DNA of 64,000 nt from Candidatus Foliamicus sp. (GTDB lineage: Bacteria > Pseudomonadota > Gammaproteobacteria > Steroidobacterales > Foliamicaceae): NCBI GenBank assembly GCA_965206955.1, contig OZ242252.1, positions 1,795,771-1,859,770 on the forward strand. Reading direction: 5' to 3'. Numbering within the stretch: the first letter of the stretch is position 1; each line of letters starts with the position of its first letter. Position numbers and translations under genes: made by a program. The notes under the pieces are model-generated. The model did not search any database. It saw only the letters and a program-made list of their open reading frames with translations, and had not been told where the DNA came from. Shown piece after piece: positions 44,366 to 63,267 of this stretch.

Positions 44366-45016
44366 CGAAAATGGCTAGCACTAGCCTTCCTGCTCCCCAC
44401 AACCCTAACCCTGGCACAGAACCCCCCACCCGACACTTCCCCCACCGCGCAACAACCCGACGCCAGCACCCTTCTGCAACAATTCTTCTTCGAGATCCAG
44501 CACCTGCAAGCCGACTTCACGCAACTCGAATTCGATGTAGAAGGAGGGTTTCGCCGCCAGAGCACCGGGCGCCTCTACCTCTCCCGCCCCGGCCGCTTTC
44601 GCATCGACTACCTCGAGCCGGACGAAGTGATGATCTGGGCGGACGGAGAAAGCCTTTCGATGTTCGACCCGGAACTGGAACAGGTCACCGTGTGGAAACA
44701 ATCCACTCGGCTCAGAGAATCAGCTGCCGCGCTGTTGGCCGGAGACGCCTCGGTCCTGGAGAACTACCGGGTAAACGTGGCCGAATTCGAGGACGGCCTG
44801 CAATGGTTTGACCTGGCCACCACGACTGCGGAGGAGGGGGACCTGCGCCTGGCTTTGCGGGACAAAGCGCCCGCGATCATCGAGTATTCCGACGAGCTTG
44901 GCAGCCGTGTGCAAATGCAGCTTTTTCGCCTGGACCTCAAGAGCAAGCTCGACGACAAGCTGTTCGATCCCGAGATACCACCCGGCGTAGATATATTCGA
45001 GGCCGTGGAATCGTGA
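44366..45016 (+). CDS. lolA: Outer-membrane lipoprotein carrier protein LolA (start codon unresolved)
   Basis: LolA-like sequence (signal-like [15 protein letters not shown], ...FTQ....G....[37 protein letters not shown]). There is no ATG, GTG or TTG between the REP array and the signal peptide. The only upstream start (44162) reads through the REP array. Confidence 0.75.
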
Positions 45017-46284
45017 TCGATCCCAAGTTATTGCGCGAGCAGCCCGAGGCCGTGGCGAGCGGTCTGACCCGGCGAGGGGCGCCCTTCGATGTGGCTGCCT
45101 ACCGGGAACTGGACGCGAAGCGCAAGACGCTTCAAGTACATTCGGAAAAACTGCGCGCGGAACGCAACCGTCTTTCCAAGCAGATCGGCGCCGCCGCACG
45201 GCAGGGCGCGGACGTCCAGCCGCTCAAGAACCAGGTAGCCGAAGCTGCGCAAGGACTGCCCCAGGCCGAAAACGAACTCAAGACGGTCCAGGAGGACTTG
45301 CGGGAGATTGAACTGGGCCTGCCCAATCTGCTCGACGAGGCCGTCCCAGACGGCGCCGACGAAAGCGCCAATCACGAGATTAAGGCCTGGGGCAAACCGC
45401 GTGCAGCGGGCGATGCTGTTCTTGATCATGTGGCCCTCGGCGAAGCGCTGGGGCAGATGGACTTCGCCGCCGCCGCACGCGTAGCCGGCGCCCGCTACAC
45501 CGTACTGCTGGGCGATCTGGCGCGGCTGCATCGCGCCCTGATCCAGTTCATGCTGGATATGCACCTCAACGAGCACGGCTACACCGAGGCCTACGTGCCT
45601 TACATCGTCAACGCCAAGTCGCTGGTAGGCACCGGCCAACTCCCCAAGTTCGAGGAAGACCTGTTCGCCGTTCAGTCCGAACGGCCGTCCTACCTCGTGC
45701 CCACAGCCGAAGTTCCACTGACCAACCTGGTGGCCGGTCAAATCGTGGACATAGCCAAATTGCCGCTGAAATTCACCGCACACACACCTTGTTTCCGCTC
45801 CGAAGCCGGCTCCTACGGCAAAGACACGCGCGGAATGTTGCGCCAGCACCAGTTCGAAAAGGTGGAACTGGTGCAAATCACCCATCCCGACCAATCAGCC
45901 GCAGCGCTTGAGGAACTTACCGGGCACGCCGAAGCCGTGCTGGAGCGGCTGGAGTTGCCCTATCGCAGGGTCGTCCTTTGCGCCGGCGATACCGGCTTCG
46001 CATCCGCCATGACCTACGATCTCGAAGTCTGGCTGCCCGGACAGAACCGCTACCGCGAAATCTCCTCCTGCAGCAACTGCAGGGACTTCCAGGCCCGGCG
46101 CATGAGCGCCCGCTGGCGCGGCAAGGACTCACGCGGCTTCCTACACACGCTGAACGGCTCCGGCGTAGCCGCCGGCCGCGCCCTGATCGCCGTGCTCGAA
46201 AACTACCAGCAGCCCGACGGCAGCATCGTCATTCCCGAAGCCCTACGCCCCTGGATGGGCGGCGCGGATAGAATCTCAGCCTGA
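45013..46284 (+). CDS. serS: Seryl-tRNA synthetase
   Basis: 423 aa with an N-terminal coiled-coil arm and class II motifs ([25 protein letters not shown] and [21 protein letters not shown]). The GTG start overlaps the lolA stop. Confidence 0.95.
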
Positions 46285-46302
46285 TCTGATCCCTCAATCA
46301 TC

Positions 46303-46389
46303 GGAGAGGTGGCAGAGTGGTCGAATGCGGAGGTCTTGAAAACCTCTGACGGTTTACGCCGTCCGTGGGTTCGAATCCCACCCTCTCCG
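46303..46389 (+). tRNA. tRNA-Ser (anticodon UGA), copy 1
   Basis: Folded by hand. Acceptor stem GGAGAGG/CCTCTCC, anticodon arm GAGGT-CTTGAAA-ACCTC, long variable arm GACGG/CCGTC, and T arm GTGGG-TTCGAAT-CCCAC. Confidence 0.9.
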
Positions 46390-46694
46390 TAATAGGCGTT
46401 CCTAATTTTGGGGCAAAAATGGCGATTCTTCAGCGATCGGTAAGAGAGTGAAGAGAAAGGAATTCAGAGACACTGCTGCCAATAGCGTGCCTGTGCAGCA
46501 AAACAATGAGGTAGAGAATGAAACTCGGGCCTGGTGATTGTGACGGTCTACCCACATCAAGGGTGGCTCGGGTCGAGGGGAACGGTCAGGTGGGCACACA
46601 CTACGAGAAAGCGTCTCCCAACCAAGTACGGAAAATCCATACTTACGCAACGGACTGCAATTGGTCCGACCTTGACTAATGAGAAACCAACCTA

Positions 46695-61663: not shown

Positions 61664-62487
61664 TCGATCCGTGTCACAAGCTATCAATCAGCCGACAGGC
61701 GAAGATCCTCGAGATCTCGCGTTCGTCGGTTTACTACACGCCCCGGCCCGTGTCGCCGGCGGACTTAGAACTGATGAAGGCGATCGACCGGCTGCATCTG
61801 GAGGCACCCTATGCCGGGAGCCGGATGAGGAAGAAACTCCTTCGCGCTGAAGGCTTCAAGGTCGGGCGCCGCCATGTCAGGACGCTGATGCGGACGATGG
61901 GCGTCGAGGCCTTGTATCGCAAGAAGAACACGTCGCGCCGACATCCGGGCCACGAAGTCTTTCCGTATCTGCTTAGAGGTCGAACGATCACCGAGGCCAA
62001 TCAAGTCTGGGCGCTCGATATCACGTACATCCCGATGGCCCGCGGCTTCGTCTATTTCGTCGGCGTCATGGACTGGGCGACCCGGAGAATCTTGTCCTGG
62101 CGGCTCTCGACGACGCTGACGACGGACTTTTGTGTCGAGGCGCTGGAAGACGCGATTAGCCGTTATGGGAAGCCTGAGGTCGTCAACACCGACCAGGGCA
62201 GCCAGTTCACGAGTGCGGCGTTCGTCGAACTCGTGCACGGCCACGGAATCTCTCTCAGCATGGACGGCAAGGGGGCTTGGAAGGACAACGTCTTCATCGA
62301 GCGATTTTGGCGGACGCTGAAATACGAGGAAGTCTATTTGCGAGCCTATGAGAGCGTGTTGGCAGCGAGACAATCAATTACCCGGTATCTCGCGTTCTAC
62401 AATGGCCGTCGTCCGCATACCGCGAATGACGACTTAACGCCGGATGCGGCGTACTTTGGCGTGCTGTCGATTAACCAGGTAGCATAA
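61660..62487 (+). CDS. IS3-family transposase OrfB (DDE integrase core)
   Basis: ATG at 61660 overlaps the orfA stop (ATGA), in the -1 frame. Sequence includes ...[31 protein letters not shown]...[11 protein letters not shown]...[14 protein letters not shown]. Confidence 0.85.
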
Positions 62488-62554
62488 TCATGAAACCGCA
62501 AGGCCCATCACTTATCGACGACTGAAAAACTGTCCGAAACAGCGGGACCCTCTC

Positions 62555-63167
62555 TCAGTCCGAACGGCCGTCCTACCTCGTGCCCACGGCTGAAGTGCCG
62601 CTGACCAACCTGGTGGCCGGCCAAATCGTGGACGAAGCCGACCTGCCGCTGAAATTCACCGCACACACACCCTGTTTTCGCTCCGAAGCCGGCTCCTACG
62701 GCAAAGACACGCGCGGAATGCTGCGCCAGCACCAGTTCGAAAAGGTGGAACTGGTGCAGATCACTCACCCTGACCAGTCAGCCGCAGCACTTGAGGAACT
62801 CACCGGGCACGCCGAAGCCGTGCTGGAACGGCTGGACTTACCCTACCGCAGGGTCGTCCTGTGCGCCGGCGACACCGGCTTCGCATCCGCCATGACCTAC
62901 GACCTCGAAGTCTGGCTGCCCGGACAGAACCGCTACCGCGAAATCTCCTCCTGCAGCAACTGCAGAGACTTCCAGGCCCGGCGCATGAGCGCCCGCTGGC
63001 GCGGCAAGGAGTCACGCGGCTTCGTACACACGCTCAACGGCTCCGGCGTGGCCGCCGGCCGCGCCCTGATCGCCGTGCTGGAAAACTACCAACAACCCGA
63101 CGGCAGCATCGTCATCCCCGAGGCCCTGCGCCCCTGGATGGGCGGCGCGGATAAAATCCCTGCCTGA
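62555..63167 (+). pseudogene. 3' half of a second, diverged serS copy (from codon ~217 to the stop)
   Basis: Collinear with serS 45668-46284 but with many synonymous and some non-synonymous differences. It starts exactly at the IS3 right end. Confidence 0.85.
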
Positions 63168-63179
63168 TCCTCGATCATC

Positions 63180-63267
63180 GGAGAGGTGGCAGAGTGGTCG
63201 AATGCGGAGGTCTTGAAAACCTCTGACGGTTTACGCCGTCCGTGGGTTCGAATCCCACCCCCCTTCC
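63180..63267 (+). tRNA. tRNA-Ser(UGA)-like copy 3 with an altered 3' acceptor strand (possible pseudo-tRNA / att scar)
   Basis: Identical to copies 1 and 2 through the T arm. It then reads CCCCTTCCG instead of CCTCTCCG, which cannot fully pair with the 5' GGAGAGG. Confidence 0.6.

Follow-up and report, generated by a model that had tools for sequence, protein, structure and literature searches.

Repeated serS-tRNA-Ser(UGA) segments bound defence and toxin-antitoxin modules at an apparently integrase-less hotspot of Candidatus Foliamicus

Downstream of the intact serS gene and the adjacent tRNA-Ser(UGA) gene, the genome of Candidatus Foliamicus sp. carries further copies of both, those of serS partial, set between blocks of cargo, and the locus raises the question of whether such an array was assembled by site-specific integrating elements or by homologous recombination. 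The stretch of DNA analyzed here comprises 64,000 nucleotides (nt) of contig OZ242252.1 (assembly GCA_965206955.1, positions 1,795,771 to 1,859,770 of the forward strand) and is called the window throughout (W in comparisons); the loci of relatives are labelled L001, L081-L088 and L092-L095, and the repeat units of the window U1-U4. The original prediction, made from the sequence alone, described tandem, decayed genomic islands left by integrating elements that carry a serS-3'/tRNA-Ser segment. Tandem, partly decayed island modules bounded by serS-3'/tRNA-Ser copies are supported by our analysis; as to their origin, general homologous recombination accounts for the evidence better than integrating elements do. 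In our preferred reading, to which we assign a probability of roughly 0.6, the locus is an integrase-less hotspot for defence and toxin-antitoxin (TA) islands downstream of serS-tRNA-Ser(UGA), diversified by homologous recombination, in which the serS'-tRNA units serve as portable homology arms. The observations that carry this reading are a fossil junction shared among strains, the lack of recombinases in the DNA covered, dispersed breakpoints, discordant identities between modules and flanking gene, and a signature of selection.

The tRNA genes were located with ARAGORN, and the serS copies by BLASTN searches of the window with the resident serS-tRNA region as query. The intact serS, the three tRNA-Ser genes and the three additional serS segments (c2, c3 and c4) were all found within 2 nt of their predicted positions. 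These features, together with flankL, the flank that precedes c2 and c3, are as follows:

45013 to 46284, forward strand: resident serS, intact, 423 amino acids (aa), with homologues up to 99% identical
46302 to 46390, forward strand: tRNA-Ser(UGA) copy 1, end of U1 (ARAGORN; Rfam, 61.1 bits)
48935 to 49274, reverse strand: flankL copy 1, start of abiEii and C-terminal half of abiEi (AbiEi_3 positions 78-157 of 157, E-value 2e-20)
49275 to 49606, forward strand: U2 (c2), serS codons 189-299, cut on the right by an IS5-like element (ratio of non-synonymous to synonymous substitution rates, dN/dS, 0.11)
56370 to 56709, reverse strand: flankL copy 2, start of abiEii and C-terminal half of abiEi (AbiEi_3 positions 79-157 of 157, E-value 9e-21)
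56710 to 56848, forward strand: left part of U3 (c3), serS codons 189-234, joined by a deletion to a ParE/RHH module (BLASTN)
57364 to 57452, forward strand: tRNA-Ser(UGA) copy 2, end of U3, followed by the post-tRNA motif to about 57480 (ARAGORN, Rfam)
62555 to 63179, forward strand: U4 (c4), serS codons 221-423 and spacer (dN/dS 0.08; tRNA-synt_2b, E-value 9e-36)
63180 to 63267, forward strand: tRNA-Ser(UGA) copy 3, with an altered 3' acceptor strand, followed by a variant post-tRNA motif (ARAGORN, Rfam)

The BLASTN alignments place c2 (49275-49606) on resident positions 45577-45908 (92.5% identity, E-value 1e-137), c3 (56710-56846) on 45577-45713 (92.7%, 3e-52) and c4 (62555-63260) on 45672-46383 (93.3%, 0), and the region of tRNA copy 2 (57359-57480) on 46297-46416 (94.3%); the repeated serS and tRNA segments are real and far beyond chance. 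Codons 189-423 of the resident gene (45577-46284) form the coding part of U1. The full repeat unit measures about 0.8 kb: it begins at serS codon 189, continues to the stop (708 nt) and through a spacer, and takes in the complete tRNA, often with some 30 nt more. The direct repeats bounding the modules include an entire tRNA as well as 708 nt of serS, and the distal copies are something other than 3' fragments of a tRNA. The reading frame of c4 is open to the normal stop at 63167; in relatives, SerS carries the Pfam domains Seryl_tRNA_N and tRNA-synt_2b. The tRNA copies 1 and 2 are 100% identical across 94 nt. Copy 3 has the same sequence through 63260, beyond which the 3' strand of its acceptor reads CCCCCTTCCG instead of CCTCTCCG, and with an Rfam score of 47.6 bits, compared with 61.1 for copies 1 and 2, it is probably impaired. 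A 28-nt motif, ATAGGCGTTCC...TTTTGGGGC, follows tRNA copy 1 to about 46418, and a loosely conserved form of about 30 nt lies downstream of five tRNAs, namely copies 1-3 of the window and the first tRNA of L081 and of L084.

Comparison with other strains revealed that this architecture is not confined to the window. Among the GTDB species representatives nothing was nearer than 79% SerS identity (metagenome-assembled genomes of uncultured Gammaproteobacteria), and relatives with SerS 86-99% identical were taken from a large protein database, their contigs coming from ENA metagenome assemblies and including some of 2.9-3.9 Mb; about 10 kb of downstream flank was covered for each, in only about ten strains. 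The upstream order ftsK-lolA-serS-tRNA-Ser is conserved in ten loci, and the defence and TA content downstream is unrelated among them, with a type I-U CRISPR-Cas system in L087, AAA_13 and an MmeI-type enzyme in L088, NTP_transf_2/HEPN and Fic in L083, and ParE/RHH and FGE-sulfatase/bAvd in L092. The serS/tRNA unit occurs two to four times per locus, between cargo modules. Distal serS'-tRNA units were found in at least five independent long-read assemblies (L083, L084, L085, L086 and L092/L095), in every one of which the left junction falls at the identical nucleotide and is preceded by the same flankL; the array of L082 is the same as that of L083.

This left junction is the most informative feature of the array. 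In the window, c2 and c3 have their first serS nucleotide in common, base 1 of codon 189 (equivalent to 45577), and are preceded by the same 340 nt, the alignment of flankL plus unit start (48935-49413 with 56370-56848) extending over 479 nt at 96.7% identity. Since the match of flankL to the AbiEi_3 profile is limited to positions 78-157 of 157, the joint splits the antitoxin gene mid-way, and as judged from this profile flankL is a broken gene and not a dedicated attachment arm. The identical left junction occurs in c2 and c3 of the window, U2 of L083, U2 and U3 of L084, and in L085, L086 and L092. The joining of mid-abiEi to serS codon 189 is a novel junction with the form of a tandem-duplication junction, and because it is common to strains of which some are about 9% apart in flanking core DNA, it arose once, before the strains diverged, and is old. 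All distal copies descend from one illegitimate joint between mid-abiEi and serS codon 189, which may itself have originated as a tandem-duplication junction or by aberrant capture.

The remaining ends of the copies are ragged, and IS5-like, IS630 and IS3 elements (insertion sequences, IS) together with two deletions explain them. The right end of c2 is the start of the IS5-like element, whose inverted repeat begins at 49605; the left end of c4 (equivalent to 45672) is the right end of the IS3 element; and c3 ends in a deletion joint, the sequence at 56838-57007 corresponding to the ParE/RHH region of L092 (11451-11621) and overlapping by 11 nt at the joint. An attachment (att) core inside serS, as had been proposed from the copy boundaries, finds no support: the boundary at 45672 was ruled out as such a core by the IS3 end lying there, 45577 is the fossil joint, the five breakpoints mapped lie at five places, and no recombinase was found in the DNA covered. 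The junction 21-mer GCTGCGAAAGGGCTACACCGA had no match in viral contigs. Its two matches in JGI metagenomes were dismissed as chance, having nothing else in common with the window. A plasmid search with the flankL-c2 region returned no plasmid-borne form, only distant serS genes of 68-71% identity.

Between 46391 and 64000, all long open reading frames (ORFs) and all other stop-to-stop segments of 60 aa or more were searched for recombinase domains with Pfam. This interval yielded no domain of a tyrosine or serine recombinase (Phage_integrase, resolvase), in agreement with the original prediction that no integrase survives in the window; the sole mobility machinery of the window's island consists of the DDE transposases of IS elements. 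Precomputed Pfam matches likewise gave no recombinase in the 10-kb downstream flanks of L081, L083-L088 and L092-L094, nor did Pfam in that of the outgroup L001. An integrase just beyond position 64000 had been suggested as worth looking for, and in L095, whose sequence continues for 5.2 kb past the equivalent of the window end, there was neither an integrase nor a further tRNA. In all, no recombinase was found in about ten modules across ten strains.

The positions at which pairs of strains change relationship point in the same direction. All five breakpoints that could be mapped lie at different positions, and none (0/5) coincides with the codon 189 junction or with a fixed position in the tRNA. 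The serS of L088 is a chimera of two clades with a breakpoint near window positions 45313-45412, its 5' part being 86% identical to W and 79% to L001 and its 3' part 82% and 93% identical, respectively. W and its closest relative L081, at 98-100% identity up to 46418, are identical to about 46112, then diverge, and are unrelated beyond 46418. Between W and L092, identity is 97-100% over 35-44 kb and falls to 87% in the 5' half of serS and to 93% in the unit, the drop from 99-100% to 87% lying upstream of and within the 5' half of the gene. L085 and L086 remain identical until about 600 nt to the left of the distal unit, from where they diverge more and more across the unit, the divergence being complete beyond the tRNA. 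In L084 and L085, divergence of about 5% gives way to near identity midway through the distal unit. There is thus an excess of recombination in the flanking core gene serS. Of the idea that the crossover point of the array lies inside serS, the part that stands is that crossovers occur there; what does not is a fixed, att-type point used by integrating elements.

Module and gene identities are equally discordant. Positions 57001-64000 of W differ from L095 by two mismatches in 7000 nt (99.97% identity) and 52394-57007 is 98.7% identical, although the serS of the same strain is only 87-93% identical to that of W; modules near-identical beside a serS this divergent have had a history separate from the gene that they adjoin, which bears out the earlier proposal that foreign DNA came in. 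The second part of that proposal, that the distal serS copy is not a recent in-situ duplication, holds as well, with a synonymous divergence (dS) from the resident gene of about 0.25 and with c4 resembling the functional serS alleles of L084 and L083 (95.3-95.6%) more closely than the window's own (93.3%). The proximal and distal serS 3' halves are equally distant from outgroups (82-84% and 84-85% identity, respectively), so that neither stands out as the host copy. A gain of a module can be followed between two relatives: the FGE-sulfatase gene lies directly after the first tRNA in L092 and after the second in L083, the latter having additional cargo, flankL and unit between serS-tRNA and this gene. 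Separately, a 2.2-kb patch at 54594-56793, spanning the IS630 copy, the abiE remnant, flankL and the start of c3, is about 2.3% divergent from L095 within an 11.6-kb block otherwise more than 99.9% identical, and has the look of a gene-conversion tract.

The distal copies also bear a signature of selection. Resident serS and c4 differ by 32 synonymous and 9 non-synonymous substitutions (dN/dS 0.08), as expected from the prediction that the differences would be mostly synonymous. The dN/dS values of distal units (0.05-0.19) span those of functional copies (0.06-0.14), and all distal units retain an open frame free of stop codons. Substitutions private to distal units number 24 synonymous and 10 non-synonymous, against a neutral expectation of about 75% non-synonymous (P = 2.6e-8; transitions only, P = 1.9e-5). 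The low dN/dS and the open frames imply that the distal copies belonged to a working serS until recently, or that working alleles overwrite them regularly. A comparison of c2 with c3 gives 9 differences in 137 nt for the unit and 7 in 340 nt for the adjoining flankL, so that the unit is more than three times as divergent and the two sides of the junction have had different histories, a contrast expected if conversion tracts end where homology ends.

Since each module lies between copies of one 0.8-kb stretch of essential-gene DNA, host homologous recombination can act on it. RecA-type recombination could insert, delete and replace modules and bring them in from other strains or from sister species, and its crossovers could fall anywhere in serS, the units or flankL. 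Additive insertion into a site with a single unit could proceed by two crossovers within that unit or by a Campbell-type event with a circle. The units would cycle through the functional serS position or be overwritten by functional alleles, as their dN/dS suggests, and non-functional copies would for this reason still look selected. Insertions of IS5-like, IS630 and IS3 elements and deletions at microhomologies have then eroded single copies in the window. A further-reaching proposal, which we hold tentatively and at less than even odds, is that the units are working parts of an integrase-independent cassette system, in which any DNA bracketed by units could be added, removed or swapped at serS by RecA alone in any member of the genus. 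The homology arm would then be an essential, slowly evolving gene present in every recipient, kept 'fresh' by cycling through the functional serS position, and the system would be a homology-based counterpart of the integron for defence genes.

A competing explanation is site-specific accretion, which we consider unlikely. Integrative elements would target serS/tRNA-Ser and carry a serS-3'/tRNA segment that regenerates the target, each distal unit being a displaced target fragment and the modules remnants mobilisable in cis, with the integrases lost or acting in trans. Modules bounded by direct repeats of the target's 3' part, a left junction identical in all copies, the position at a tRNA gene, the motif conserved after five tRNA copies and the AT-rich cargo beside tRNAs 1 and 2 all fit such elements. 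A regenerated target with a displaced fragment is the standard signature of islands (PMC4383910), elements with a replacement copy of their target gene exist, for example the recA island (PMC4405046), and tycheposons are known to form decayed tandem arrays at tRNAs, tRNA-Ser(UGA) among them (10.1101/2020.12.28.424599). Against this explanation, no recombinase domain was found in the roughly ten modules of ten strains or past the window end; the supposed attachment arm is half an abiEi gene, none of the five mapped breakpoints falls at the junction or at a fixed tRNA position, and the junction 21-mer is not found in viral contigs. Several points nevertheless weigh against our preferred reading of recombination between portable arms. 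The exact shared left boundary and the tRNA-gene position fit a family of site-specific elements too, as do the motif of about 30 nt after five tRNAs and the AT-rich DNA after tRNAs 1 and 2, and an integrase may act in trans from elsewhere in the genome. The right-hand core flank lies beyond every 10-kb flank, which places an empty site outside the range covered; additive insertion by recombination is suggested by sequence comparisons; and the strain sample is only about ten.

A purely local history, in which an old tandem duplication of serS'-tRNA-island DNA has been inherited vertically and has decayed without horizontal exchange, is improbable. The joint of abiEi' and serS codon 189 does have the form of a tandem duplication and, being common to strains about 9% apart, is old, and such an event may account for the initial junction. 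As a complete explanation it is contradicted by the lack of neutral decay in the distal copies (5-10% divergence, dN/dS about 0.1, no stops, P = 2.6e-8), by the contrast of a 99.97% identical module with a serS of 87-93% identity in the same pair of strains, by the chimeric serS of L088 and by a unit more divergent than its flank. A function for the distal serS fragments, for example that of a decoy or regulator translated from the flank and kept by selection in a defence island, is very improbable. An in-frame ATG, conserved in flankL, does lie 60 nt upstream of the junction (window 49215-49606; L083 18692-19459; L084 18167-18934), the distal units of L083 and L084 are called as intact ORFs of 255 aa, comprising 20 aa plus SerS 189-423 (229 aa in L085 and L086), and dN/dS among distal copies is about 0.1. 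All three distal copies of the window are nonetheless truncated (by IS5, a deletion and IS3), c3 and c4 in the same way in the near-identical sister strain L095; the leader of L084 U2 has been lost to an IS240 insertion, the leader codons vary non-synonymously between copies, and a SerS fragment starting at residue 189 is missing some of the class II catalytic core. A collapsed or chimeric contig, the artefact named as a way in which the prediction could fail, has a negligible chance of being the explanation: the same architecture recurs in at least five independent long-read assemblies, including contigs of 3.6-3.9 Mb, the unit copies differ by 5-8%, and their flanks are unique.

The literature documents hotspots that lack an integrase and are diversified through recombination in the core genes beside them (Oliveira et al. 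2017, PMC5635113; Johnson et al. 2023, PMC10250203), and one of them, the core defence hotspot cDHS1, adjoins pheS/pheT and tRNA-Pro (Johnson et al. 2023, PMC10250203). The serS locus resembles such core defence hotspots in its fixed core flank (ftsK-lolA-serS-tRNA), in content wholly different between close strains (CRISPR-Cas I-U, Rosmer, TIR, AAA_13, MmeI, HEPN/NTP_transf, Fic and TA pairs), in mobility genes restricted to IS elements and in a sharply raised divergence of the flanking core gene. It departs from them in that the 708 nt of the serS 3' end and the tRNA are repeated inside the island, giving internal homology arms and an additive, cassette-like layout. With tRNA-gene islands that use tyrosine integrases (Islander, PMC4383910; tycheposons, 10.1101/2020.12.28.424599) it shares the position next to a tRNA, modules bounded by direct repeats of the target's 3' part, and the pattern of successive modules pushed outward with remnants left behind. 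Unlike in those islands, the repeat here is 0.8 kb long and spans an entire tRNA and over half of a protein-coding gene, neither an integrase nor a fragment of one is present, and crossovers fall at scattered positions.

Some elements bring a substitute for the target gene that they disrupt, as e14 and phage 21 do in icd of E. coli. With the recA mobile element of Vibrio cholerae (PMC4405046), as at the serS locus, a diverged, mostly synonymous copy or 3' end of an essential gene stands beside the intact gene. Elements of this kind encode an integrase and have one defined insertion site. Neither of these was seen at the serS locus. In mechanism alone, the array is also like the orphan 3'-end arrays of rhs and cdiA. 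In those arrays a full-length gene is followed by 3' fragments in the same orientation that share a block of homology and mark successive displacement and acquisition by homologous recombination; the same order of full-length gene and equally oriented 3' fragments is found here. The payload of the serS array, unlike theirs, consists of separate genes (Rosmer, TIR, HigBA), with no fused toxin tip and immunity gene, and serS is a housekeeping gene.

Hotspots free of integrases are accordingly already known, as are additive islands linked to tRNAs. No description was found, in the literature on these hotspots, of a long core-gene 3' end plus tRNA repeated as module boundaries and under apparent purifying selection. 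How defence islands without mobility genes are built and exchanged is an open question (PMC5635113; PMC10250203), and the present locus is unusually legible in this respect: the recombination substrate is visible, the fossil junction dates the origin, and cases of module gain, of replacement and of near-identical modules in otherwise divergent backgrounds can be seen in relatives. If the units do act as portable homology arms, duplicated core-gene ends would be a signature by which other integrase-free cassette hotspots could be searched for. The mosaic nature of serS in this clade also makes it a poor phylogenetic marker.

The cargo between the units, with the IS elements, is arranged as follows:

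46419 to 48934, unstranded: cargo block A, G+C content 0.48-0.55, with a 453-aa ORF at 46695-48056 (Pfam, PADLOC)
49605 to 50806, forward strand: IS5-family element with perfect 15-nt terminal inverted repeats at 49605-49619 and 50792-50806 (DDE_Tnp_1, DUF772)
50807 to 52393, unstranded: wreckage, with a 189-aa Gly-rich ORF at 50866-51435 and DDE transposase fragments at 51685-52416 on the reverse strand (Pfam)
52394 to 56369, unstranded: module M, 98.7-99.7% identical to L092-L095 in the same order (Pfam)
52427 to 53239, reverse strand: DUF3267 fragment, part of module M (Pfam)
53183 to 53509 and 53522 to 53827: HigB and HigA, part of module M (Pfam)
54107 to 54703: 198-aa ORF, part of module M, which also holds an abiEii remnant
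54700 to 55852: IS630 element in module M, with terminal inverted repeats
56849 to 57358, reverse strand: ParE/RHH_5 toxin-antitoxin remnant, 97% identical to L084 11406-12075, L092 11451-12208 and L094
57481 to 61274, unstranded: cargo block B, G+C content 0.52-0.53, lying within the 57001-64000 interval shared with L095
57502 to 57951: 149-aa ORF, part of block B
58100 to 59185, reverse strand: Rosmer RmrA (PADLOC, E-value 2e-146; Pfam Peptidase_M78 and HTH_3)
59182 to 59835, reverse strand: Rosmer RmrT (PADLOC, E-value 3e-56)
60182 to 61039: TIR-domain protein, 285 aa (Pfam TIR_2)
61275 to 62556, forward strand: IS3-family element, orfA at 61361-61663 and orfB to 62487, with terminal inverted repeats at 61275-61301 and 62530-62556 (rve, HTH_Tnp_1)
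63268 to 64000, reverse strand: start of cargo block C, with DUF6527 (63328-63675, E-value 2e-22) and the 3' end of a ThiF/E1 gene that runs past the window edge

All three IS elements that had been proposed (IS5-like, IS630 and IS3) were recovered with terminal inverted repeats, the IS3 element being 98.4% identical to L083 11722-13001. The cargo had been described as remnants and orphan genes, which fits the transposase wreckage and the TA and Abi remnants but not the intact Rosmer system, the TIR protein or the apparently intact HigBA pair (53183-53827). The statement that the intervening DNA is AT-richer applies to 46-49 kb (G+C 0.48-0.55) and 57-61 kb (0.52-0.53), but not to 49-57 kb, where the G+C content of 0.57-0.65 is host-like. 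In block A, the 453-aa ORF gave no Pfam family above cut-off and no PADLOC match, and positions 48524-48793 are 97% identical to L084 17544-17813. The 473-aa ORF that L081 has at the same position was considered as a homologue of the 453-aa ORF and rejected, the two being unrelated.

In block B, the intact Rosmer anti-phage system (RmrT/RmrA) adjoins the TIR-domain protein at 58100-61039. A ParE/RHH_5 pair sits between the serS stop and tRNA-Ser in several strains (L092 11311-11824; L084/L085 11449-11692), the ParE_toxin and RHH_5 families being called in L092; the pair travels with the repeat unit, and the window has only its deletion remnant. In L095, an operon at 3435-5858 encodes Multi_ubiq plus Prok-E2_E, ThiF (571 aa) and DUF6527, and the DUF6527 and ThiF/E1 genes of block C belong to such an operon; this Multi_ubiq/ThiF/DUF6527 operon is a ubiquitin-like conjugation system and probably another item of defence cargo.

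Other repeats were found elsewhere in the window. A 42-bp tandem repeat at 44182-44342 lies at the start of the lolA-like ORF (44162-45016) and appears as three overlapping 77-nt matches spaced 42 nt apart with 92-95% identity; its length varies by strain, with an alignment gap at 44216-44308 relative to L081 and L084. The interval 3900-23000 holds many diverged internal repeats, for example 4900-6704 with 13929-15736 and 6831-7664 with 16001-16834 (each 68% identical), which suggests very large repetitive genes. Finally, a dispersed family of 50-140-nt repeats, present in both orientations at 74-97% identity and resembling repetitive extragenic palindromic (REP) or miniature inverted-repeat transposable element (MITE)-like intergenic elements, occurs at 1866, 24670-24770, 26376-26517, 27351-27570, 33369-33741, 36635-36740, 40762-40958 and 44318-44348.

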